Below are positions 8,611 through 63,800 of a stretch of DNA of 64,000 nucleotides, in pieces. The notes under the pieces are model-generated. The model was not told where the DNA came from. It made no database searches and saw only the letters and a list, made by a program, of their open reading frames with translations. Where the stretch lies: IMG/VR virus record IMGVR_UViG_3300028914_000059, positions 96,001-160,000 of that record; one strand, given 5' to 3'. This stretch comes from a virus (lineage: Duplodnaviria; Caudoviricetes). The number at the start of each line of letters is the position of its first letter. Positions within the stretch are counted from its first letter, which is position 1. A program made the position numbers and the translations under genes.

Positions 8611-11067
8611 TCACACCGTAGTCTTTATTATAATATCACCAAGTACAGCGGTTCCTCGTTTACCTGGTGTTGCAGATACTATAATAGTTTCATCAGCTGC
8701 CATCGGGACAGTCACTATATGGACTCCGCCGTTTAGATCTGCCGGGACATTTATACTCAGGTTAGTTCCTGATATCAGCATAGCGTTACCTATGCCACTA
8801 TTTATTATAGCATAACAGTCCTTCTGTGTGTTAATCTGAGCAACACTATCTTCTGGAGCAGCATTAACTTCATAGATACCATCAGTAGTTATGGCTTCCC
8901 ACTCAGGACTCATATAAACCTTACCGGCATCCCTGTCTGCTTCCCATTCGGACTGTCCACCTGTATACTCATTATAGACATAATAGCCGAAACGATTTCT
9001 GTTATAGTAACTTACATCATTCCTATACACCATAGAACTTTCAACTTTTTCCATTTCCGGGGCTGCTATCATACTGTATGTGGGATCGTTTCTAAGATAA
9101 TAAGTAACATTAGGATCTAATGGATCGGTAGATGGAATAACGGTGTATACCCCACTAGCTTCGGTATATAATGGTATCGTATATGTTGTATATACATTGC
9201 CAGCTGCAAGATCGGATTCCCAGGTTTCCTGATCTACATAAGTATAGGGTTCAACACTGGAGGTTACATACTGCACATTAGAATCATAGACTGTATCTTC
9301 CGGGACCACCTGTAAATATATGTTCTGTGCGTAGTATTCCAGTTCTCCCGAAGCTGCATCTGTTTCCCAAGTTTCCTGATCCACATATGTATATGATGTC
9401 CAGGAACTTTCTCCAGTCCTGGTATAGTATACCCTTGAGCCATCGTATTCATCTCCGGCACTGACTGTAGACGGGGATATGTAAGTCTGTGAATAGGTAT
9501 AGTCATTTCGTATAAAATAGGGCTTGGTGTCATCATAGGGAGCCCCGGATGATACCGGTTGGTAATTCAATACGGACGCACTTAAAACACTGTAGCCTGA
9601 ACCTAATCTTTTAGATGAACTGTTCTGCAGGTTCTGCATCTCCTGCGAGATAGAGGATATATTTCTAGAGTTAGTGTCTATGCCGCTGTATATAGAAGTC
9701 AAATCACTGTTGATACTGGAAACATCTGCAGCCACCCCTGCTATAGCATCTGTATTGGAAGATATATCGCCACTAAGACTTGTTTCTAATTGGGTAATAG
9801 AACTATTAATACCTGGTATTGTTGTATTGTCTAAAGTAGACAACCTGCTTAAAGCTAATGATGAATCTGTCTCTAGCTGAGTGACTCTTGTGTCAATAGC
9901 ACCTATGCTATTATTTATAGCAGTCTCTGCCAGACCACGATTAGTTACCTCATCAGCCAGGTCACTAGAAACCTGTGATATATTGCCAACAGCAGTATTT
10001 AAGTCATCAGCCACACCTGATGTAGCTTCCTGCAGGTCAGATATGTCAGACTGAGCCTGAGTCATATCTCCCTGTAAAGCATCAACATCTGTTCTCAAAT
10101 CAGCAATACCTGAATTGCCAGACCCTTCGCCGATACCTGCAGCATTCTCAAGAGCCAACACACGACCTTCTACAAACGATATAGAGTTCCTTGTAGACAA
10201 AATACCCTGTTCTGCTCCAGCTATACGCTGTTCGTGGCCAGCAAAATCGGGTTCCCCCTCTGGATCATTTGTTCGTCCATTCACAGTAAGTTCTAAAGCA
10301 TCGAGACGGTCCCCATTACCATCTATACGTAAACCTATAGCAGTATCAGCACTTTCCAGATCCTGAACGTCGAGTTGCAAATCACTGATCTGAGTTCCAT
10401 AACCACCCAATGTGCTATCCAGGCCAGAAAACTCATTAATGAAATCAGTGTGTCCGGCCACAGTCTGTTGCAACTGGCCTATATCAGTAGCTTGAGATAC
10501 CAGACTCTGTGTGTGACCTGCAACAACATCCTTGAGGCCAGTAGTTGTAGTATTCAAATCATGCTCAATGTCAGAAATCCTGGTCTCGATACCAGGCTGT
10601 GCATTTTCAAGAGTTGTTATCCTATTACCCTGACTAGTTATGTTGCCTTCCGCTATTCCAAGGTCAGTTTCAAGAGTAGTGGCCCTGCCTTCTACAGCGG
10701 TAGCTCTGCCTTCCAGGGACGACACTCGCATTCGTACAGAATTCAGATCTGACAGGCCTAACTCATATCTATCCCTGTCTCCATCCCGAAACTGCGACTG
10801 AAACATAACGGCACTTATTGTCAACTGGCCATTATCATCTTCATTTATTATAATATTATCTCCAGCATTGTATAGTGCTGTGGACACAGTCATCTGGCCT
10901 TCACTGTTAAATAGTATAGTATTCCCATCACATTTAGCTGTTATCTGATAAACTTCGTTATCTACATTGATACCATCGCCACCGATATATCTATAACCTG
11001 CAGGGTTGGTGCTGGCGTTCATAGAGGCGCTGGTTCTTTCTATTGACATGTTTGTTAATAAAGACAT
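8611..11067 (-). CDS. Coiled-coil tail fibre/spike protein
   Basis: 818 aa; long heptad region (RVSSLEGRATAVEGRATTLE...) and Tyr-rich C-terminal repeats (YTYVDQETWExD). Confidence 0.7.
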   Translation of the reverse strand: MSLLTNMSIERTSASMNASTNPAGYRYIGGDGINVDNEVYQITAKCDGNTILFNSEGQMTVSTALYNAGDNIIINEDDNGQLTISAVMFQSQFRDGDRDRYELGLSDLNSVRMRVSSLEGRATAVEGRATTLETDLGIAEGNITSQGNRITTLENAQPGIETRISDIEHDLNTTTTGLKDVVAGHTQSLVSQATDIGQLQQTVAGHTDFINEFSGLDSTLGGYGTQISDLQLDVQDLESADTAIGLRIDGNGDRLDALELTVNGRTNDPEGEPDFAGHEQRIAGAEQGILSTRNSISFVEGRVLALENAAGIGEGSGNSGIADLRTDVDALQGDMTQAQSDISDLQEATSGVADDLNTAVGNISQVSSDLADEVTNRGLAETAINNSIGAIDTRVTQLETDSSLALSRLSTLDNTTIPGINSSITQLETSLSGDISSNTDAIAGVAADVSSINSDLTSIYSGIDTNSRNISSISQEMQNLQNSSSKRLGSGYSVLSASVLNYQPVSSGAPYDDTKPYFIRNDYTYSQTYISPSTVSAGDEYDGSRVYYTRTGESSWTSYTYVDQETWETDAASGELEYYAQNIYLQVVPEDTVYDSNVQYVTSSVEPYTYVDQETWESDLAAGNVYTTYTIPLYTEASGVYTVIPSTDPLDPNVTYYLRNDPTYSMIAAPEMEKVESSMVYRNDVSYYNRNRFGYYVYNEYTGGQSEWEADRDAGKVYMSPEWEAITTDGIYEVNAAPEDSVAQINTQKDCYAIINSGIGNAMLISGTNLSINVPADLNGGVHIVTVPMAADETIIVSATPGKRGTAVLGDIIIKTTV

Positions 11068-14000
11068 TAGAAATGACCTACCCTTTCATTGCTTAAGTCA
11101 GTGGCACTGTCTACAATATAGAAAGTGTCATTGAATGAGGCTGCAACCATAGGAACAGAGCCTCTGTTGTCGTATACACCTATATTAACCTGGAACTGTT
11201 CACCAGGAAGTCTCCAGGTTTCTACATTACTAGTTAAAATATATTTACCAGGCTGAGTTGTATCTTTTTCTATATTTAAGGTTATTCTCAAGCCATTTTC
11301 AAATAAGGCATCAGAATACATATCCGAAACTGGATAATCTACCAGCTCACCCTCTTCATATAGAGTTGTTTCTATCTTAAACGTTTCACCACGTATAATA
11401 GTTTTTGCTCTGTCTAATTCCACGGTCCGCCTCCATTCCAGCTCCAGTGTATCTGCATAGGATGATTCATCCAGTGTCAGTGCACTATCATCCATCGTAA
11501 TATCTGACTCTTCATCATGTATAAATCCCTGTGGCACTATGTCGTCAAAGCCCATTTCACCATCGGAAGTAAAATAAAAAATAAACTGGAGATCGTCATC
11601 CATCTGTGGCGTTGTGTCTAACAAGCCATCATCACAAGTGTGGACATCACCTTCATCATCGTGATACCACAAGCCTGCACCATACTCAGGCAATATAATC
11701 CATTTGCCTGTGGCAGAGTCATACTCTTTGACCCCTAATGGATAATCTGCAAAATTCTCAGTCCATGTAAAATGAATGTCTGAGTCTACTGCAAATACAT
11801 CATCAGATATATTAAAAGCATACTGAAAAATATATTTAGTATATGCCGGCTTAACCGCATCCAGGAATGCCCTGAGCACTCCCATCTGGGCTTCATCGCC
11901 AGCCCACTTAGAGCTGTCTATTTTTACAGTAAATGTAAAATGCTGCAGGAAATACTTGTCCAAACATTCTTCAGAAGCGAATGAGTCCAAAGTGCCGGTA
12001 GTATCGTTAGGTATATTGCCATCCAGATACATGCCGCCGGCTAGTTCACATGTGTCACGGTTTTCATCCTCATTACCAGAGTATTCATCCCACCAGGCCG
12101 GATAGTTGATATAGTCATATACCTTTACAGCATTAGTCATCGGATCAAACTTGACTACATTCTGACCCCTGACTATCTCAACTGACTCATTACCTAAATA
12201 AGTATAATCAGTACCATTGATGTTAACTATGGTGCTAGCGTCTTCCAGCTTTTCAACAATGTCACCAACCTGAATAAAGTCAAATGCCTCATCCGGCAAT
12301 CTCACCAGAGTTTCATACTGCATTACTATAGAGTCTGCAGTGAGATCATGTATTCTATATTCAGTCTTGAGTTGTGCCCTGATGGCATCAGGTATATCAT
12401 CCACTGTTACTGTGGATCTGACAACTTCTACATCAGTGCTGCCATCTTCATGAGCTTCTACATCATTTATCACATCACCAGCCTGGAACTGAGATGCTAT
12501 ATCAACTGGCAGGATGCAGGTTGTGGCGTTGGCAAATGTCACTGACATCTTATAGTCACGATTGATTGGATCCGGCTTATGAACTTCCTTTATATATGAG
12601 CCGATCATTATCTTATCCATAAGTTCCTTAGCATGATTCCTGGCCTGGGGTGTGTCTTCCAGAGCTACAGGAATCACATAATCCTTATAGATAGATATGA
12701 ATGGATCGTGCACAGATGCTATAGTATAATCCTTGGCATACGCAGAAATACATGGGTCATCAGGAACCTGAGTTCCAACTTCCAGACCTTCTGTGGTCTC
12801 TGGTCTCAAGCCATTGATAACATGCGATATGGTTATAGTGTAGTTTTCATAGTCTACATCTATAACCGGAGCATTCAACGGTATGACATATGACTTCTGC
12901 AGGGCCATGTAAGGCCAGCTGGTTGGGACTACAGTGTAGTCACTGGCATAGGCTGGGACGCATGGGTCAACTGGTGCAGGATCACCGACATCTGGATGAT
13001 TTCCATCCTGAGGATAGAGTCCATCTATCTTATGGATAATGCTGAATACTCTGTCATCTTCATAATCTTCGCCAAATGATAGTCCTGAATGTTCCAGTTC
13101 TATCTCAACATCCGGTGTCTTGATATAGTATTCACCGTCTTCAGCTGTGACACCATCACCAAGACATAATTTGCCTTCCTGCCATGAAGTGAATGCAACA
13201 TCTTTATCGGCTGTGAAGCTTGCTGCTTCTACATTTGACATGGTTATTTTCGAAAAAATCTTGAAACTAACGCTGTCTTCAGATGCTAAATTTACGATTT
13301 CTGTACCCTTTGTCAATTTTGCGATCAATTCTGAGTCTGCTGGCACAGAAATGGTGGTTATATACTTCACTCGATGGTAGGCTGCATCAACAGCGGATAT
13401 GCGGGCACCCTGAATCAATGAATTGAAGCAGTCCTGAGACACCTCAAAGGAATGCCCACCAATAGCGGCTTTGTGCTTGTTTATAGTGATATCTGAAACG
13501 ATACCAGTAGTTTCAACAAATGGCAAATCAGTTAAAATGGTTATGCCCTTAGTCATACTATCTACAGATGCACCATTCCAGAATGAATACCACAAGCCCT
13601 GCACTTGTCGCAGATATGAATATGAGTCAGTGCCATAAATGCCAATAAGACAGCCGAAGTTGTCGTATATAGTGTGCAGGTCACGTATGGACTGATTAGT
13701 CCATAGGTTTTTATATGGCTGAGTCTTAAAACTTATAGTTCTAGCATCCTGGTCAACAACAAAATCGGTGCCAGGATAATATTTTACAGCATCTACACTG
13801 ATGCCTGCAGGGAAAAAGAACCTGTCCTCGTAGGATATTACGTCATCAGGGGCATATATCTTATCACCAGGCAATCTGTTCTCTCCAGACGGCAGTGTCA
13901 ATACATCGGAATCAGCGCCAACAGATGTGTAGTTAGGTAGAACAGTTACTTCTCTAGGCCCTTCGGCAAGCATGACTACGTCACGTATGCCGTCAGGCAG

Positions 14001-14267
14001 AGAATAAGTATATGGATATGAGGCTTCAGCGTCATAGGAAACAAGCGTACTGCTATCACATGTGACTTTTTCCCAGTCACTTATCCAATCATAAGGTATT
14101 GTCTCGATAGATTTTGATAATTCTACCTGATACATCTGATAATACAGATTTTCCACAACTTTGCAATAGCCTCTCCAAAGCTGTGAGACTGATTCTGTAT
14201 CATCAAAAGACTGCCAGAAATCAGATACTGCATCCCAGATATAATTTACATTAAGTTCGTTCTTCAT
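11067..14267 (-). CDS. Baseplate wedge-like protein
   Basis: 1066 aa, acidic; 'LRQVQGLWYSFWNGAS' and 'FLDAVKPAYT' motifs typical of baseplate wedge subunits; internal repeat DPCxxAYAxDYT. Confidence 0.65.
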   Translation of the reverse strand: MKNELNVNYIWDAVSDFWQSFDDTESVSQLWRGYCKVVENLYYQMYQVELSKSIETIPYDWISDWEKVTCDSSTLVSYDAEASYPYTYSLPDGIRDVVMLAEGPREVTVLPNYTSVGADSDVLTLPSGENRLPGDKIYAPDDVISYEDRFFFPAGISVDAVKYYPGTDFVVDQDARTISFKTQPYKNLWTNQSIRDLHTIYDNFGCLIGIYGTDSYSYLRQVQGLWYSFWNGASVDSMTKGITILTDLPFVETTGIVSDITINKHKAAIGGHSFEVSQDCFNSLIQGARISAVDAAYHRVKYITTISVPADSELIAKLTKGTEIVNLASEDSVSFKIFSKITMSNVEAASFTADKDVAFTSWQEGKLCLGDGVTAEDGEYYIKTPDVEIELEHSGLSFGEDYEDDRVFSIIHKIDGLYPQDGNHPDVGDPAPVDPCVPAYASDYTVVPTSWPYMALQKSYVIPLNAPVIDVDYENYTITISHVINGLRPETTEGLEVGTQVPDDPCISAYAKDYTIASVHDPFISIYKDYVIPVALEDTPQARNHAKELMDKIMIGSYIKEVHKPDPINRDYKMSVTFANATTCILPVDIASQFQAGDVINDVEAHEDGSTDVEVVRSTVTVDDIPDAIRAQLKTEYRIHDLTADSIVMQYETLVRLPDEAFDFIQVGDIVEKLEDASTIVNINGTDYTYLGNESVEIVRGQNVVKFDPMTNAVKVYDYINYPAWWDEYSGNEDENRDTCELAGGMYLDGNIPNDTTGTLDSFASEECLDKYFLQHFTFTVKIDSSKWAGDEAQMGVLRAFLDAVKPAYTKYIFQYAFNISDDVFAVDSDIHFTWTENFADYPLGVKEYDSATGKWIILPEYGAGLWYHDDEGDVHTCDDGLLDTTPQMDDDLQFIFYFTSDGEMGFDDIVPQGFIHDEESDITMDDSALTLDESSYADTLELEWRRTVELDRAKTIIRGETFKIETTLYEEGELVDYPVSDMYSDALFENGLRITLNIEKDTTQPGKYILTSNVETWRLPGEQFQVNIGVYDNRGSVPMVAASFNDTFYIVDSATDLSNERVGHF

Positions 14268-14273
14268 ATCAGA

Positions 14274-14302
14274 TATATACCTTTACTGATCACATATGTC
14301 AA
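14274..14302 (-). promoter_or_regulatory. Sigma70-type promoter TTGACA-N17-TATATA (probably gives leaderless mRNA)
   Basis: -10 ends 6 nt before the ATG at 14267; no SD present. Confidence 0.65.
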
Positions 14303-25248: not shown

Positions 25249-25575
25249 ATGGCTGGATTAGATGCTGAAAAAGAAGAATTTGACCTGATGACTTTATTTG
25301 ATCACTGCGTGCTGTTTACTACCAATAGGATCGACAGGAAAACAGTCCCCAACAATATGTTCATGTATGAGACTAGGGACGGTTCTCAGGATGGCCATAT
25401 CCATGAATTAGCCTACAGGATAATCGCGGATTTCTTTGGAACCGTTATCAGTAAGGAGCCCTTATTACCTACGGATGATCTGGACTCCTACAGCTACGTG
25501 AGTTTCGATGCTTATGGTTTTGAGCCTTGTGGCTCAATAACTTTGCAGCAGTATGCAGATTCTAATTTGCATTAA
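25249..25575 (+). CDS. LPD28-like (large polyvalent protein domain) protein
   Basis: 'LFTTNRIDRKTVP..MFMYETRD...FFGTVIS' pattern, recognised from memory. Confidence 0.6.
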   Translation: MAGLDAEKEEFDLMTLFDHCVLFTTNRIDRKTVPNNMFMYETRDGSQDGHIHELAYRIIADFFGTVISKEPLLPTDDLDSYSYVSFDAYGFEPCGSITLQQYADSNLH

Positions 25576-25587
25576 GGAGGGAAACAA

Positions 25588-26094
25588 ATGAGTGAAAAGG
25601 AAATAGTACAGTGGCTTATGGATAACCAGACAAGAGGCGCAGCTTTTGCCTTTTGTCCTAAAGAGGTGCAGGACTGGATTCAGAATAACTATAAGAAGTA
25701 TCCCATTCTCAATCTCAGTTTGAACAAGGTACCTTTGGATGATTCGGTAACCGATTGGCAGATTCCTGCACTTCCATTACAGTTCAGACTTCCGGCCCAT
25801 AAGTCCTGGGTAGAGTTTGAGATAGATGGAGATGGCGTGTTTATCATAAATCCTGCAGAATTCGGTGGATATGGAGCTACAAAAGCATTCATGTGGTGGG
25901 AGTATCTGGAAGTACTTAAACACATGGAATACGGCCTTACCAATTTTGGTGGATGGCAGTATGAAGATAGTAAACGATGGTATCTTTCTCCAGCGGTTAA
26001 ATTACATAGTGATTTGTGGAACTCGTATGTAATTGAAGAAAGCGAAGACGCAACATCAGTTATACCGGTTAAGATACGATTCTGGAGGGAATAA
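25588..26094 (+). CDS. Hypothetical protein, 'ExEI..L..N..G..F.FMP' family
   Basis: GGWxY and PxKIRFW motifs shared with 26097. Confidence 0.75.
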   Translation: MSEKEIVQWLMDNQTRGAAFAFCPKEVQDWIQNNYKKYPILNLSLNKVPLDDSVTDWQIPALPLQFRLPAHKSWVEFEIDGDGVFIINPAEFGGYGATKAFMWWEYLEVLKHMEYGLTNFGGWQYEDSKRWYLSPAVKLHSDLWNSYVIEESEDATSVIPVKIRFWRE

Positions 26095-27539: not shown

Positions 27540-27780
27540 ACAGGAAATTATTAAATTACTTAAAGAGAATGTAGATAAGGGTGTGTGTCTGGGCTTCATG
27601 CCTGATGATGTAGTGCGCTGGTGCAATAAGAACAAGGAGAAATTATATTTCTTCTTTGATTATATGATGACAGACGATGGAAGTATGGAGCACGAATGGA
27701 TAGGGTATGCTGATGCTGCTTTCGTGATAGAGGATGACTTCGGTCATTTAAGCGAAAGAAATATTGTTGCTATATATTAA
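27532..27780 (+). CDS. Hypothetical protein, 'ExEI..L..N..G..F.FMP' family
   Basis: MAEQEIIKLLKENVDKGVCLGFMP. Confidence 0.7.
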   Translation: MAEQEIIKLLKENVDKGVCLGFMPDDVVRWCNKNKEKLYFFFDYMMTDDGSMEHEWIGYADAAFVIEDDFGHLSERNIVAIY

Positions 27781-27792
27781 GGAGGTAAAAAA

Positions 27793-28125
27793 ATGACAGA
27801 TGTAATGATAGAGCTACAGTTCGCTTTGGATAAGTTCGGTTATAAATGGGAAGATATCGAGTGGGCACATTTAAACAATAAAGCCAATGAGAGGGATGCT
27901 ATAATAAAGCCCAGTTATTCTAAAGATGATATGGATAAATTTAAAGAGGACATCATCAATATGGGTCAATATGACGATGGCTACGGTGGTCAGGAACTCT
28001 TCGGAGATGTCGTATTCAAAGACGGAACCTGGTTAAGTAGAGGGGAATACGATGGTTCCGAATGGTGGCATTATAACATCAAGCCCACATATGAAGCTTA
28101 TATAAAAGATTTGGGCAGGGATTAG
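27793..28125 (+). CDS. Conserved phage hypothetical protein
   Basis: 'YDDGYGGQEL.G.V.FKDGTWLSRGEYDGSEWW' motif common in phages. Confidence 0.8.
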   Translation: MTDVMIELQFALDKFGYKWEDIEWAHLNNKANERDAIIKPSYSKDDMDKFKEDIINMGQYDDGYGGQELFGDVVFKDGTWLSRGEYDGSEWWHYNIKPTYEAYIKDLGRD

Positions 28126-31101: not shown

Positions 31102-31783
31102 TATTACATACCTCCGGAGGTTATATATAGTAATATAGGCTACAATTCTGCGTATGTCAATATAGAACTTAATTTCTATAATTCACCGGGTTATAACAGC
31201 CTGGTTATTTTTAGCTATGGTTAGTTAATTTAATTGTCATTGCCTATGAGATATCCAGTACCTAGACCGCCTAAAGCACCAGCACCGAGCCCAGCTGCGC
31301 CTAAAGCAGTGCCTCGATTCCTGAGGCCTTGAACTAAATCAGTCAGTGTATCCCCTGAGGCACCCAAAGTGTCCTTAAGTGTTTTCCCGGCTTTATCTAT
31401 ATTGTCCAACATTTCATATGTTTGGTTATTTATTAGTCCCGGAGCAGGATTAGCTGTAAGTAATCCTGACAGGGAGCTTAAAACACTACTAGTGTGAGCT
31501 TGATCTGCGAGATCAAGGATGTTGTCAATTTCGCTAGCCCCACCTTGCAGTGCGGTTCTTAATTTCTGTTCCAGAGCTTTAGTTTTAGCAATTCCCTTTA
31601 TAGAGTCTATTATCCCAGCTTGTTTTTCCATATCTGCAGAATATCCCAGACAGGCTAATTTATACTGAGCTGCTCTGGCTATATCATTAGCTAATTTATT
31701 AATCATTGTTACATACCCCCAGAGGTTATATATAGTAATATAGGCTACAATTCTGCGTATGTCAATATAGAACTTAATTTCTA
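31060..31783. repeat. About 120-bp direct repeat of promoter + RBS + leader-coding segment
   Basis: About 31060-31178 vs 31665-31783; each contains TTGACA-N17-TATATT on - strand (31132-31160, 31737-31765). Confidence 0.85.
31230..31706 (-). CDS. KxA-leader protein with C-terminal glycine zipper
   Basis: MINKLANDIARAAQ...MEKQA|G; ends GAGALGGLGTGYLIGNDN. Confidence 0.8.
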   Translation of the reverse strand: MINKLANDIARAAQYKLACLGYSADMEKQAGIIDSIKGIAKTKALEQKLRTALQGGASEIDNILDLADQAHTSSVLSSLSGLLTANPAPGLINNQTYEMLDNIDKAGKTLKDTLGASGDTLTDLVQGLRNRGTALGAAGLGAGALGGLGTGYLIGNDN

Positions 31784-37811: not shown

Positions 37812-38582
37812 ATGCCACAAAAATTCGTCATAGTTCCAGATGTCCATGGCGAGGACTTCTGGGAAGAAGCCATTGATTTAGTCGCCACTAAACATTACAA
37901 GGCTATTTTTCTGGGAGATTATTTTGACAGCTATAATAAGCTTCCACGCGAGAAGGAGCTGAAGAACTTTCAGGAAATCCTGGATTTCAAGGAAGCTGAC
38001 CCTGACAAAGTAGCCCTGCTTCTGGGGAACCATGATCTGGCCTATATGCTTCTGAAAGGGTGCTCTCGTCAGGCTACCGATTCAGATTTTATATCTATTA
38101 ACAATATCCTTTGGGATAACATCGAGAAGCTGGCTTTGACCTGTAAAATCAAAGTTAATCATGTTGATGGTAGTTCTCAGAAGGTTCTATGTTCTCACGC
38201 CGGGATTACAGACGCCTGGTTAAACTGGATAATCCACACCCTCAACTGGGAGATGGATGAGGAGGACCTGTTCCATGCCATAACGTCAGGTATGCTGGAC
38301 CTGATGCTTTTAAGGTCCAGAAGTTCTGACAGAAACAGGGGGCGGCTTGCTACTGTTTTATGGCAGGTTTCTTCTCTCAGAGGCGGGGACAGTGTCGGTT
38401 CACTTATATGGGCAGACAGACATGAGTGGCCTAAGTATGCTCCTGGCAGGGCCGGATGTAAATCCGCTGCTAAGCGAGGGGTTTATCAATTCGTGGGGCA
38501 TAGCAGGTGCGGAGTCTGTAAGTTCACAGACGATGTATTCTGCTTCGATGCTCCGGTGAACAAGATACAACTTGTAGATTAA
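37812..38582 (+). CDS. Calcineurin-like metallophosphoesterase
   Basis: DVHG, GDYFD, GNHD, HAG, GHS motifs. Confidence 0.9.
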   Translation: MPQKFVIVPDVHGEDFWEEAIDLVATKHYKAIFLGDYFDSYNKLPREKELKNFQEILDFKEADPDKVALLLGNHDLAYMLLKGCSRQATDSDFISINNILWDNIEKLALTCKIKVNHVDGSSQKVLCSHAGITDAWLNWIIHTLNWEMDEEDLFHAITSGMLDLMLLRSRSSDRNRGRLATVLWQVSSLRGGDSVGSLIWADRHEWPKYAPGRAGCKSAAKRGVYQFVGHSRCGVCKFTDDVFCFDAPVNKIQLVD

Positions 38583-38652
38583 AAATAATACAGCTATCAG
38601 ATGACAAATCTGGTAGCTGTATTTTCTTTAATTAAGGAGGCAAACAAATACT
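38581..38652 (-). ncRNA. Putative anti-Shine-Dalgarno small RNA
   Basis: TTGACG-N18-TATATA promoter (38659-38688), GTATTTGTTTGCCTCCTTAAT, then terminator hairpin AATACAGCTA/TAGCTGTATT. Confidence 0.45.
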
Positions 38653-38760
38653 ATTATTTATATAGCATTTTTGGGGATAGATCGTCAAGTAAATTATCGA
38701 GGGGTAATAGGTATAAGTATAGTAGACTAAGGAAAATTAAATGAAAGGAGGACCTATACA

Positions 38761-39297
38761 ATGTATAACGGTCCAGTTAGTTACAACGAATCAGTGTCTC
38801 CAGCACAGGTAGCAGGTACCGGTGCTGCTCTCGGCTTTGGAATATTCACTTCCAAGCTAGCAATAGATGGAGTTAAATCCCTAGTAAGCAACGCTTGTCA
38901 GGCCTCTCCAGTTGTTATCGAACCTTCTGCTATGGATCAGGTCGTAGAGACCTGTTCGAAAGCAGTGCCAGTAGTTACTGTTATGGTGGCAGGCGTAACT
39001 CTGACCGCCGCTGCAGGTAAGGCTATAAAAGCAGGCTGGGAATGCACCAAGTCTGCAGGCATCTGGGCCTGCGATTTGGCAACTGGGTGCTTCAAGAAAG
39101 CCACTGGTTGGTTTACTAAGAAGCCTTCTACCCCAGCTCCAGCAGCAGCTCCCGTAGCATCTACCCCAGCTCCAGCAGCATCTACCCCAGCTCCAGCAGC
39201 AGCTCCCGTAGCATCTACCCCAGCTCCAGCAGCAGCTCCCGTAGCATCTACCCTAGCTCCAGCAGCATCTACCCCAGCTCCAGTTCAAAAAAACTGA
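38761..39297 (+). CDS. Membrane-associated protein with Pro/Ala-rich tandem repeats
   Basis: STPAPAA(APVA) repeats at about 39127-39283. Confidence 0.75.
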   Translation: MYNGPVSYNESVSPAQVAGTGAALGFGIFTSKLAIDGVKSLVSNACQASPVVIEPSAMDQVVETCSKAVPVVTVMVAGVTLTAAAGKAIKAGWECTKSAGIWACDLATGCFKKATGWFTKKPSTPAPAAAPVASTPAPAASTPAPAAAPVASTPAPAAAPVASTLAPAASTPAPVQKN

Positions 39298-40665: not shown

Positions 40666-41253
40666 TTAATTATCTCTGTTAAGTAGGGCATTCAGGCCAA
40701 GACCACCAGCCAGACCCATACCAGCACCACCCAAGCCAGCATAGAATCTTGGATCATTATATATCTGCTGACCTAAAGCTTTAGCCTTAGCTGCACCAGC
40801 ATCTATATAGGAGCCAAGATTGTTAATTCCGGCTTCTGCATATGGCTGAGCAGCAGCAGCAACTTGATCTATACCTGCTTTTCCTTTACCAAGTACTTTT
40901 TTTATGACATCTGCAGCACCGGCTTGTTTAATAAGTTTCAAAAGCTTCTTTTGAGCAGCCTTTTTAACGAGGTCCTGTTTAGCGGCTGCCTGTTTAGCTG
41001 CTGCTTGCTTAGCTGCAGCATTCTTATTGGCTTCGGCTTGTTTAATGATATTTAAGAGCTTTTGTTGAGCAGCTTGTTTAATTAAAGCTTGATTAGATTC
41101 CATTTCTACCTGCTGAGCTTTTGCAAGTTCTGCTTGTTTTTCCTGCTGTTCCTGTATTTCAGCAGCAGCAGCTAGTTGAGCCTGATATTCCTGAAGTTGA
41201 GCTAGTTTAATTATTATTCTATCAGCGACAGCATCGGCTAATTTAGTAAACAT
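40666..41253 (-). CDS. KQA-repeat protein with C-terminal glycine zipper
   Basis: Six KQA copies; ends GLAGGLGLNALLNRDN; promoter TTGACG-N17-TATATT at 41296-41324. Confidence 0.8.
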   Translation of the reverse strand: MFTKLADAVADRIIIKLAQLQEYQAQLAAAAEIQEQQEKQAELAKAQQVEMESNQALIKQAAQQKLLNIIKQAEANKNAAAKQAAAKQAAAKQDLVKKAAQKKLLKLIKQAGAADVIKKVLGKGKAGIDQVAAAAQPYAEAGINNLGSYIDAGAAKAKALGQQIYNDPRFYAGLGGAGMGLAGGLGLNALLNRDN

Positions 41254-41327
41254 AGTTGGAGATCTCCTTAATATTAAAAATTCCAGACGCTATATAATAT
41301 ACTACATTGTAATTATAGCGTCAATGC

Positions 41328-42104
41328 TTAATTATCGTTATTAAGCCTGTTATATAAGCCATAGCCACCCAAGCCTAAACCTGTAGCGGCTCCAGCACCT
41401 ATTAAAGCGTTTTTATGCTGTGATACAAATGGGTTTATGGTGTTTATTCTATAGTTATTAATCCCCTGTCCAAGCTGATTTAATTTGTCTTTAGCCATAT
41501 TATATGCCTGAGAACCCAGCTGGCCTAGACCTTCACCTGCACCAAGAACCAGGTCACGCCCGAATTGTCTCCCGTTTATACTGTTAGAGATGTTTTGAAG
41601 CTGTGCATTTATGGCATCTGCTGAAGTCTGTAAATTACCGCCAAGACCTTTAATCTGCTGCACAATATTTTTAGCTGGTGCTTCAGCTAACTCCACTGCT
41701 TTCTGATGCGCCAGGTTGGCAGCTCTTCTTTTTAAATAATATTTAAGACCTTTATATCCACCATATAGACCTGCAGCAGCAGCAGCTCCGCCGCCAATCT
41801 TACCACCATGGGCTTTAAGAAATGGGTTGATAGTATTATTCCAGGCATTCTGGCCCATTTCTCCAATACCAGCCCCCACCCCTTTAGCTAGACTCTTACC
41901 AAAGTCTCCTGCGAAGCCTAAGGCGTCCTTAGTTAAATTTTTTGCTAGATTCTGTCCCTGTGCAGTTATATTCTCCGGGCTAAGAAAATTCACTAGTTTA
42001 GCCAGATACCCTTGCAGTTCTGGTATAGCATCAGCTGCAGCTTTGCTTCCATGTTTTATATCGAATAAAACACCACCACATTTTTCTCTGAATGGATTGC
42101 TCAT
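41328..42104 (-). CDS. Two-module glycine-zipper protein
   Basis: Start MSNPF (GGGAGG RBS); duplicated 'TINPF...G...GLYG/GYGL' modules; ends NNDN. Confidence 0.75.
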   Translation of the reverse strand: MSNPFREKCGGVLFDIKHGSKAAADAIPELQGYLAKLVNFLSPENITAQGQNLAKNLTKDALGFAGDFGKSLAKGVGAGIGEMGQNAWNNTINPFLKAHGGKIGGGAAAAAGLYGGYKGLKYYLKRRAANLAHQKAVELAEAPAKNIVQQIKGLGGNLQTSADAINAQLQNISNSINGRQFGRDLVLGAGEGLGQLGSQAYNMAKDKLNQLGQGINNYRINTINPFVSQHKNALIGAGAATGLGLGGYGLYNRLNNDN

Positions 42105-55560: not shown

Positions 55561-55702
55561 AACTTCGAATTTTAAGATATTTTTTAGCTGGTAATGGTAT
55601 AAGATTTGTATTATTATATAGCCTGGCCTCAGGATTTTCCGGACATTTAAGGAGGCTGTCCACACTAACCGGAGACCAGGTAATCCAACTAAGGAGATTA
55701 TA

Positions 55703-60244: not shown

Positions 60245-60790
60245 ATGTCAGCAATAGTTAGTACTAATCCATGTGCGACAGAGCGATGCCCACGTTGTGG
60301 TGCAGGTCCCGAGAATATTTTTATTACCTCGGTAGAATTGGAAGAGACCGACCCACTGGTCTCATATTTTAAACATTTTGTAGATTTACATGGCTGCAAG
60401 AAATGTAAATTTACATGGGCAGAAAATGAAGCTTGTTATACGACAAGTCAGGTAGCCCAGTTTCTTATGAACAGCTTTGTATCTCAGGTTAAGGAAGAGC
60501 TTAGTAATCGAGTTCAGACGCAGGTGTGGTTTGATGAAGTTACGAAATTGCTAAAGAAAGAAAAAGTATTACCGGCCACATATGCTTTTGATAAAGCTAA
60601 AGGCTATGCTGAAAATTACCTGGATCTGCTTATAAAAGTCAATGACTTTATAACCAGTTCCAGTAGAGAAGAGTTGCTCGACCTGTATCAGGCATGGGCA
60701 ATATATATGGAAGAACCACCAGAAGTGGTACCGGATGTTGATTCATTATCGGATCCATCTACTACTGACAAGGTTCTAATCGACGATTAA
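60245..60790 (+). CDS. Zinc-ribbon hypothetical protein
   Basis: CPRCG...CKKC..TW. Confidence 0.75.
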   Translation: MSAIVSTNPCATERCPRCGAGPENIFITSVELEETDPLVSYFKHFVDLHGCKKCKFTWAENEACYTTSQVAQFLMNSFVSQVKEELSNRVQTQVWFDEVTKLLKKEKVLPATYAFDKAKGYAENYLDLLIKVNDFITSSSREELLDLYQAWAIYMEEPPEVVPDVDSLSDPSTTDKVLIDD

Positions 60791-60802
60791 GGAGGAAAAC
60801 TG

Positions 60803-63800
60803 ATGGATTCAAATGAATTCATGGATAGGTGGAATAACAGACCTAATATAGAGTCAGACTCAGTAATTAGTCTGGCAAAATTTATGTCAGAAATGGATAA
60901 CAAGACAGAAGAAGTAGTTACGGCGATAGATCCTAAGGTAACAACACTTCAGTCATCAAAGGCTGTAGCTGATTTTGTCCTGGACGTTAAGGCTTCAGAC
61001 AGTTGGATAGAACCTATAGGGATAGCTTTATCCAAAGGTCGTGACAAGTTCATAGAAACCTGGAGAGCTTACGTATCAGCCTGTTCTGATATAACAGAAG
61101 AAATATCTGATATATTACCGGACAGTGCTGCTGATAATCTTAACGCTACTATAGCTGCCCTGATGGAAAAACATGGTCAGGCTAAAAAAGATACACCGGT
61201 TACTGATAATCTGTGTACTCTGTTCATTAAGAACTGCTGGGCTGGCTGTTCCCCTGAAATATGTAAAGCCGTAGATAAGATATATCTTAGCACTGGTAAT
61301 ATGACCAAGACAGCTTTCAAAGCATTGAACCGGGCAGTATATGATGCATTTCTGGCAGCCTCAAATATGCCATCTGAAAGCATAGTCAAGAGAATAGACT
61401 TTGGCAATGCAAACTGTAGGAGGGGCATCATAAACCAGACTCCGGTAGATATTCCAGGAGTAGGTTCTGTGAAGACTGTTGCAGCTTACAGACATACAAT
61501 AAGTAATCTCGGAATGGATGAGGTTCAAAAAAATATCCATAATGCTACTGTCCATGACGGTTATCTTGTGTGGCTGGAAGACAGCAGATGCAAAGCACAC
61601 ACTTTACTGCATCTAGGGAAAGCCCCGGACAGTGGCATAATAGTTCATACGACTTCTGACTATTATCACGCCTCGACAGCTTCCAGCAGTATTACAAAAC
61701 CTCAGAAAAGCAAAAAAGAGCTTGAGGAACGTATGAAGGAAGTACGAGCTGAGATAACCGGCCAGGTCGCAGGAGTAAACTGGGATAAGATGTCCACTAT
61801 ACTGAATGTTCTGGAAGAAATGGTGGATGATACTCTCACCAGCATAATTCGTGAGGTTATCAGACCTGACCATGCAATAGAAGATCTAGTCAGTATATTC
61901 TTCCATCTATATGCTGATGGGACTATTCTTCGTGCTGGCTATATGCCAACTAACAAGAGAAAAATACCGGATCTGGAAAAGAACCCATTCTGTGAACTGT
62001 TCCAGAGAGGTCTCTGCATTCCAATAAACTCCAACGGTCAGCAGATAGACAGAAACAGTATAGTAAAATCTATTATAGGTCTGTTGATAACTCCTGTTGA
62101 TAAACTCAGAGTTGGTGCCGGTGACGTTATAGGACTGAAGCATATCGAAGATGTGGCTGAGCTTGTGAAGGTTCCAGTCAATACTGTAAGAGCTGCAGCT
62201 TTCCTGTTCGGTGTGACATATTATGATTCACTGGTGTGTTCCAGAGATACCGACACAGAAGGTGGCTCATGGGGTGCAGACAGTAAATATAAATATTCAC
62301 AGGCAGTAAAATTCAATGTCGGGCTTACCAATGTAATAAAAAGTAGTGGCTTCATGGATTTGATAGCTGAAGGTATAGAAAAATCCTTTAACCTGCTGAT
62401 AGCTGCATTGAATCAGGTAATATTCCTTCCGGAAAAGTTACCAAGATCTCATGGTATAGCTCTCAGAAGAACCCTGATGTCATTTCCTGAACTGTTGATG
62501 TTTAATGTTCCTGAACTGCTCAAGACTACTCTTCATAGTGTAATATCTCCAGCAATGGGTATATTGAAGGATATAGGATTAAAGGCAGCAGCTGAAATTG
62601 CAGCTTCTGATATGGCGGCTACTTCAAGAAAGTACAGAATCTTGTTCGGACTCAGTAATGAGCTTGTTCATCTAGTAATCCGTCAGAACAGAAGGGATGC
62701 CGGCTGGGAAGAATCTATGAATGCAGCGATTCCATATGCAAGTATGGCAGCACAATTCAAGCACGGTACTTCATTTCCTATAAACTTCAAGATATATGAA
62801 GATGAACCAAGTAAAAACCTGTCTTTGTTACGAGGGACAAGATACCCGGATCAGGAGCAGGAAACAACTGATTCAGTCATAGATCAGATGGCTCGCCATG
62901 ACACACCACCTAAGCTGGAATTTACCAATGCATCCAACACAGCTTTGAATATGTTCGGTATGGTGTCCAAGATTGCGTCTAACCTCAAAGCATTCTATAC
63001 TAAGGTTGAAAGCGAAATAGTCAAGAATGTTGAGGATGAACAGCAGAAAAAGGCCTTCCACGAAAGGATATGGAGTATGTATCCTGCAATGGAAACAAAA
63101 CCGGTACTTATCATAAACGATACTATTGGGAATCTGATGTTCAGTACTCACTATGGTGGTATTATCCAGAAGGCTGATAGGCTTGTTCTTGAAAAAGAAT
63201 ACTGCAGAGCAAGAGCTGCTTTGGAAAGTGCATACTATATAGTAGCAAACAGCAGACCTCTGGTTCCAGCGGAATTACCTGACAAGGACAAGCTCTGGGA
63301 AGACTTTATTGATGATAGATGTGTTGTAACGGATGCTATGCGTAATGCCATCAACAGTAACAAGAAGATGGTAAAGCCAAGTCTGGAATCAGGCTTTGGA
63401 TGCAAAACATTCATTGCACGCAGAAGAAATCATCAGACATTCAACCAGGCAGCTAATCGTTTCTGCACGGAACTGGCAAGGGCTTACGGACATCTTCCCC
63501 GATTAGGCTTCCCGTTCCAGGTTGTAAATGATCCGATTGTTGAACTGGATAAAATATATAGTCGGATGACGGATTCATATTCTGCTGTAATGACTATAGC
63601 CGGACCTGATGCTACCAGCCTAGGCAGACTTCCGGAAATATGGGCTCAGGAAGAAGGGGGTCCTCGTGTTGCTATGATTCCTGATCTTGAAATAGTAGAT
63701 ATGACATATAGCAACGAAATACTAGAAGGCAGAATAAATGCTGAATCACACATAGAATCTCCCAGAACACAGAACAGGGACACTATACTTGTAGGTCTGA

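Follow-up and report, generated by a model that had tools for sequence, protein, structure and literature searches.

In form, the closest described system to the locus considered here is sar of Salmonella phage P22, a 68/69-nt antisense RNA (reviewed in PMC12197685). sar blocks translation initiation by pairing, and the candidate RNA resembles it in that it would be a phage RNA of about 70 nt with a promoter of its own and complementarity to a ribosome-binding region. However, sar overlaps the working start region of ant, whereas the site overlapped here has neither a start codon nor a gene. The site is followed by ATA CTA TTA TTT ATA TAG, where ATA replaces ATG and a stop codon comes five codons on; the same is found in the relative L005, and the locus is thus not a cis-antisense blocker of the sar type. 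This agrees with the initial annotation, which had described a plus-strand Shine-Dalgarno (SD) sequence lacking a start codon. With no working start region opposite the RNA, any target would therefore have to lie elsewhere and be reached in trans through imperfect pairing.

In function, the nearest analogies appear to be with the C/U-seed sRNAs of Firmicutes and with T4 RegA/RegB. RoxS/RsaE, LhrC and S. aureus RNAIII are trans-acting Firmicutes sRNAs in which C/U-rich single-stranded seeds occlude SD sites. Like them, the candidate unit stands alone, includes a terminator hairpin, has an unpaired C/U-rich tract that is complementary to GGAGG and could act on many targets. It differs in being phage-encoded, in placing a full 20-nt leader mirror at the very 5′ end in place of a C-rich loop, and in having no sequence or Rfam relationship to these RNAs. 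In T4, RegA is a translational repressor and RegB an endonuclease that cuts GGAG in early mRNAs. The proposed outcome would be alike in that one temporal gene class is shut off via its ribosome-binding sites; the T4 agents are proteins, however, whereas here the agent would be an RNA.

Two further systems share parts of the arrangement. STAB-SD, the mRNA stabilizer in the 5′ UTR of Bacillus thuringiensis cryIIIA, is likewise a strong SD-like sequence without a start codon, but the site here is not in a 5′ UTR, being flanked by a terminator on one side and the following promoter on the other. The PeSLs of T4-type phages are composite promoter/terminator cassettes that are multi-copy within a genome (PMC2839356, PMC4122927). 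Like a PeSL, the locus combines an intergenic stem-loop with a promoter, is much better conserved than its variable flanking genes and sits at a spot with indels and gene swaps; unlike a PeSL, its 89-nt core is single-copy and carries an extra opposite-strand promoter and a look-alike of a leader.

The source of the locus is an uncultured rumen phage (IMG/VR record of 180,070 bp, 41% GC), and the window, that is the whole stretch of 64,000 nucleotides that was analyzed, corresponds to bases 96001-160000 of this record. The candidate unit lies inside a 178-nt gap separating two plus-strand genes. The upstream gene (37812-38582) encodes a calcineurin-like metallophosphatase (Pfam E = 3e-9), and the downstream gene (38761-39297) a 178-aa protein to which a family search assigned no family. 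This protein has C-terminal tandem repeats of the PAPAAAPVAST type and the repeat number varies, near-identical relatives being 149 aa (P0040, on a 167-kb contig) and 160 aa long; the relative P0041, on a 1.4-kb contig, is 92% identical. From left to right the gap holds the phosphatase stop codon, a hairpin, the leader look-alike, the minus-strand −10 and −35 elements and a plus-strand promoter. The features are as follows (L002 and L005 are contigs of relatives):

38688-38683, minus strand: −35 hexamer TTGACG, identical in L005 and kept in L002 at the edge of the deletion
38664-38659, minus strand: −10 hexamer TATATA, identical in L005 and deleted in L002
38667-38665, minus strand: TGC, an extended −10 (TGn) at the end of the spacer, read from the sequence
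38665-38682, minus strand: 18-nt promoter spacer, with the sole two in-unit substitutions relative to L005 (38679 and 38681, both A to G)
38631-38649, plus strand: orphan initiation-region look-alike ATTAAGGAGGCAAACAAAT, consisting of TAA, AAGGAGG, an A-rich spacer and AT, then A for G
38587-38623, both strands: 16-bp hairpin with T-runs on both sides, which could terminate transcripts of either strand
38580-38586, minus strand: U-run AUUUUUA of the putative minus-strand terminator, overlapping the metallophosphatase stop codon (from sequence and fold)
38694-38723, plus strand: promoter of gene 38761-39297, TTATCG-N18-TATAGT, divergent and conserved in L002 and L005
38595-38683, both strands: 89-bp segment absent from L002, a natural deletion of the unit
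38578-38652, minus strand: predicted non-coding RNA of ~72-75 nt with an unpaired anti-ribosome-site 5′ part, a hairpin and a U-run

An ORF scan found no minus-strand ORF with a ribosome site between the promoter at 38688 and the hairpin. We also rejected, as having neither a ribosome site nor a coding signature, a 47-aa plus-strand ORF (38601-38744), a 16-aa minus-strand ORF beginning with TTG and a 25-codon plus-strand frame beginning with ATT. Promoter, hairpin and look-alike are thus all present with no credible ORF between them, as had been claimed when the locus was first described as a gene-less sigma70-type unit. The hairpin, the look-alike and the minus-strand promoter each occur once in the genome, so that the hairpin was rejected as a repeated element, and the 89-nt core is unique. 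Only a 14-nt motif of the plus-strand promoter, TAGGTATAAGTATA at 38708-38721, recurs in the phage, where it is found ahead of plus-strand genes.

Minus-strand transcription is predicted to start ~7 nt after the −10 hexamer, at 38652/38651, and to end in the U-run at ~38580, giving a product of ~72 nt. The minus-strand RNA has a predicted fold of −22.6 kcal/mol (z = −5.8) and, apart from a 3-bp helix, both the minimum-energy and the centroid structure leave nt 2-22 free of pairing; this unpaired tract includes GCCUCCUUAAU. Because transcription is predicted to begin at the edge of the look-alike, the seed would lie at the 5′ end of the RNA. The minus-strand terminator would comprise a 10-bp lower stem adjoining AUUUUUA. 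One hairpin position is a U.G pair in the plus-strand version and an A.C mismatch in the minus-strand version, and a simple terminator scan lists the hairpin for the plus strand only; for these reasons the hairpin looks to be primarily the terminator of the plus-strand operon, with minus-strand termination plausible too. Rfam covariance models gave nothing at gathering score and only chance-level matches (E > 1). As we infer transcription from these parts, the unit probably yields an RNA of ~72 bases whose free 5′ end mirrors a ribosome-binding site. The ~70-nt minus-strand unit of the initial annotation is accordingly supported in silico by a promoter of a recognizable class, the lack of an ORF and the hairpin with its U-run.

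The promoter at 38688 had been assigned to the class that heads minus-strand virion-type genes, and this assignment holds, though with an 18-nt spacer. Sequences of the form TTGAC[AG]-N17-TATAT[AT] lie directly ahead of minus-strand genes at 41324, 31765, 31160, 14302, 2579 and −30525, one further copy of the class heads a plus-strand gene at −25103, and of the intergenic copies 38688 alone has no gene following it. Its N18 spacer and the A at −7 count against it, N17 being found in six of the seven promoters that head genes. Its TATATA −10 is shared with the gene-heading promoter at 14302. In that latter case (14267-14302, minus strand) TTGACA-N17-TATATA ends 6 nt before the ATG of a 1066-aa ORF (11067-14267), which implies either a leaderless mRNA or a true start codon deeper inside the ORF. 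Identical 29-nt sigma70-type promoters at 31132-31160 and 31737-31765 (minus strand) head paralogous genes that both begin MINKLANDIARAAQ, and represent a duplicated promoter-leader cassette. The phage also encodes, outside the window, a sigma70-family protein with regions 2 and 4 (a 274-aa open frame at G000:C1:~41100-41800, minus strand), which may read the TTGACA-N17-TATATT class.

The genes of the two strands differ in the strength of their ribosome sites. Using crude gene calls made for this analysis over the whole genome, AAGGAGG was found ahead of 19 of 112 plus-strand genes vs 4 of 95 minus-strand genes (p = 0.004) and GGAGG ahead of 43 of 112 vs 14 of 95 (p = 2e-4); predicted pairing with the RNA is likewise stronger for plus-strand than for minus-strand leaders (Mann-Whitney p = 1e-4). 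This bias matches the two promoter classes. Minus-strand genes under sigma70-type promoters include those for tail-needle/minor-head-like proteins, and ribonucleotide reductase is among the plus-strand genes. Because strong sites favor the plus strand and the promoter of the RNA is of the minus-strand virion class, an anti-SD RNA made from it would, on this circumstantial evidence, spare its own gene class.

The likeness of the look-alike to leaders of this phage was reproduced. The 19-mer at 38631-38649 matches 25571-25589 (the leader of gene 25588) at 18/19 positions, 27776-27794 (gene 27793) at 17/19 and 60786-60804 (gene 60803) at 16/19, and shuffled 19-mers gave 0.07 matches on average vs the 4 found; real leaders in this genome agree with one another at 17/19 positions at best and typically at 13-14/19. 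Because scanning for orphan sites with a PWM proved too noisy, AAGGAGG sites were counted instead. By this count, 10 of 35 genomic sites lack a start codon with an ORF, 38631-38649 being one of them. Five more AAGGAGG sites without a start codon are in non-coding DNA, at window positions 55649 (plus), 59495 (minus) and 22850 (minus) and at genome positions −82556 (plus) and −69930 (plus), and some of them may belong to other structured RNAs.

The complement of the look-alike is the proposed seed of the RNA, and the initial annotation took its complementarity to gene 25588 and other leaders as telling. Predicted duplexes of the 29-nt single-stranded 5′ part reach −25.6 kcal/mol with the leader of 25588, −22.0 with that of the gene at −79463, −21.0 with 60803 and −20.9 with 27793. 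When CCUCCUU was held fixed and the seed flanks were shuffled, the number of leaders paired at <= −18 kcal/mol was higher than expected (19 vs 8.0 +/- 3.7, p ~0.003), while the best pairing energy was not unusual (p = 0.09). A stricter and decisive control was provided by the complements of 23 real AAGGAGG leaders, for which the median number of leaders bound was 18 (range 7-38) and the best energy had a median of −24.5; among the 23, the orphan ranked 11th by partner number and 9th by best energy. The complementarity is therefore no better than that of the complement of any real strong leader, and this part of the initial case is not supported. Because the complements of real leaders pair as well, the sequence at 38631-38649 is a typical strong leader, and complementarity cannot tell an anti-leader RNA from a relic leader.

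Four close homologs (93, 72, 70 and 88% identity) were retrieved when the phosphatase was used as a protein query, and their contigs were read. In L005, whose phosphatase is 70% identical at the protein level, the whole block is present: the 153 nt of 38583-38735 are 97.4% identical, vs 66.8% for the phosphatase gene, 70.6% for the gene before it and 65% for the first 60 nt of the gene after. Third codon positions are only 44% identical. On the left, identity falls within a few bases of the stop codon and, on the right, just past the plus-strand promoter. Apart from a change in A-run length after the stop codon, the in-unit differences are the two A-to-G changes in the minus-strand promoter spacer, such that 38631-38688 has 2 changes in 58 nt and the look-alike itself is 100% identical. 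This stretch, between the plus-strand terminator and the next plus-strand promoter, has no evident plus-strand job. The comparison suggests that the unit, although located at a variable spot, has been preserved to a degree not expected of neutral DNA. The high identity could reflect purifying selection on the unit; alternatively, the block may be a conserved linker that took part in mosaic exchange, so that its copies would share an ancestor much more recent than that of the flanks. The two full copies, in the window and in L005, cannot separate these causes.

The remaining relatives attest to the variability of the spot. In L002 (same phosphatase protein as L003) exactly 38595-38683 are missing; the loss takes in the look-alike together with the −10, the spacer and the greater part of the hairpin, and the plus-strand promoter is retained. 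The left hairpin arm AATACAGC also persists in L002 without its partner; we therefore interpret the difference as a deletion in L002 and reject an insertion of the 89 bp in the window. Since L002 lacks it, the unit is dispensable. The L003 contig (93%) ends in the hairpin T-run and its hairpin differs in the loop only; the complete unit is thus found in one relative, L005, and the hairpin alone in L003. L004 (72%) has a different terminator followed by an unrelated convergent Gly-rich gene (L004:841-1103) for which no homolog was found in the phage genome, a neighborhood swap that, as judged from sequence, marks a gene-exchange hot spot. Searches further afield were negative: (i) exact-pattern scans for the look-alike, for the hairpin and for the block of the plus-strand promoter gave no match in IMG/VR or JGI metagenomes; (ii) single-protein locus searches in IMG/VR with three neighboring genes gave no match; (iii) an alignment-based search returned only metallophosphatases of <=46% identity and without synteny; and (iv) no GenBank phage matched, whether the search was run in near or in distant mode. 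Five IMG/VR records reached via the metallophosphatase were rejected as kin by means of the 1066-aa structural protein.

Given these data, the reading that we tentatively prefer, while holding it to have somewhat less than an even chance of being right, is that a minus-strand RNA of ~72 nt with an unpaired, CCUCCUU-containing 5′ seed damps the translation of plus-strand genes with strong ribosome sites. In this scenario the sigma70-type minus-strand promoter (38688-38659) would start transcription near 38652/38651 and the hairpin with its U-run (38623-38580) would stop it, producing a non-coding RNA. Its first ~22 nt would stay unpaired and would be complementary to a strong ribosome-binding region of consensus-like sequence; they contain CCUCCUU, the core also present at the 16S rRNA 3′ end. 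The RNA would pair with the SD/start regions of AAGGAGG-type mRNAs of the phage and possibly of the host; its targets would mostly be plus-strand non-structural genes, the best matches being 25588, 60803, 27793 and the gene at −79463. Such pairing would deny 30S subunits access to the target mRNAs and shift translation in favor of the minus-strand virion-type genes, whose sites are weaker and whose promoter class is also that of the RNA. In silico, this model is based on the component elements, the predicted fold, sequence conservation and the strand bias of the ribosome sites; we infer from them that the RNA would be made, would be abundant and would pair with its targets in trans. A bolder version, which we regard as unlikely, is that the unit is a dedicated class switch, in which a virion-class promoter (possibly read by a phage sigma factor) drives a mimic of the 16S 3′ end that titrates AAGGAGG sites, as an RNA-only counterpart of RegA/RegB.

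Nearly as likely as an anti-leader RNA, which is to say a possibility of about one in three, is that the locus is a conserved composite terminator/promoter linker at a gene-exchange hot spot, bearing both the relic ribosome site of a lost or swapped plus-strand gene and a leftover or incidental minus-strand promoter, and that any RNA made has no role. The look-alike has the appearance expected of such a relic: at 25571 and 60786, ATTAAGGAGG forms the junction of two coupled genes, joining a stop codon to an SD, and in 25588 and 60803 (two of the three genes checked) ATTAAGG holds the TAA stop of the coupled upstream gene. The swap of terminator and gene in L004, and the diverged downstream gene and 89-bp deletion in L002, are consistent with this idea, as is a complementarity no greater than leaders normally show. 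Phage mosaics typically have abrupt changes in identity where genes end, of the kind seen around the block. Furthermore, PeSLs have been described as exchange points between unrelated sequences (PMC4122927), although the 89-nt part is unique in this genome, unlike the multi-copy PeSLs. Other observations argue against a relic: no intact gene at the site was found in the four relatives read, this being the case that was expected to refute the initial annotation, and the interval from the terminator to the site has no plus-strand promoter. A neutral relic should also not stay 100% identical while silent sites are saturated, unless the block was exchanged very recently.

A rather improbable explanation, in our view, is that the minus-strand promoter acts at the level of DNA, either competing with the promoter of 38761 or tuning it through supercoiling, that the hairpin blocks antisense transcription into the upstream operon, and that the RNA is a by-product. 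The −35 elements of the two promoters are 5 bp apart, the hairpin has T-runs on both sides and both promoters are conserved in L005. The initial annotation had called such a back-to-back pair usual; the pair is indeed present here, but the term is loose in that one other tight pair exists, at 31765/31792, in a similar arrangement with different spacing. Promoter interference would leave unexplained the perfect conservation of the 19-nt look-alike and the next 9 nt, and L002 keeps the plus-strand promoter without its partner.

We give still less credence to a plus-strand role for the site, as a ribosome decoy or stabilizer (STAB-SD-like) on read-through transcripts or as the start of a tiny non-ATG ORF. 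The SD is strong, consensus-like and perfectly conserved in L005, an ATA stands at the right distance and a frame of 25 codons begins at an ATT 12 nt past the SD. However, the site is downstream of the plus-strand terminator and ahead of the following promoter on that strand, so that no predicted 5′ UTR contains it. The frame opened by ATA runs into a stop 5 codons on, each of the three L005 changes in the ATT frame is non-synonymous, and the site is deleted in L002. Finally, a chance co-occurrence of promoter-like and SD-like strings beside a terminator is the least credible reading, for although ~1.5 loose-pattern promoter matches would be expected in 360 kb (an estimate from base composition) and five other startless AAGGAGG sites occur in non-coding DNA, the block is 97.4% conserved where silent sites stand at 44%, which makes chance unlikely, and the 19-mer similarity is far above that of shuffles and above that of any pair of real leaders.

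A more general lesson is that 'anti-RBS' complementarity is cheap, in that the complement of any leader scores alike. The tiny size of the unit and the natural 89-bp deletion variant make it an easy target for reporter assays. To our knowledge, the sorting of gene classes at the level of translation by a tiny phage RNA has only sparse experimental support. If the locus is merely a linker with a relic site, it would still mark a recombination hot spot; if the anti-leader RNA is real, a large rumen phage would be using a tiny RNA to sort its strong-site plus-strand genes from its weak-site minus-strand virion-type genes.
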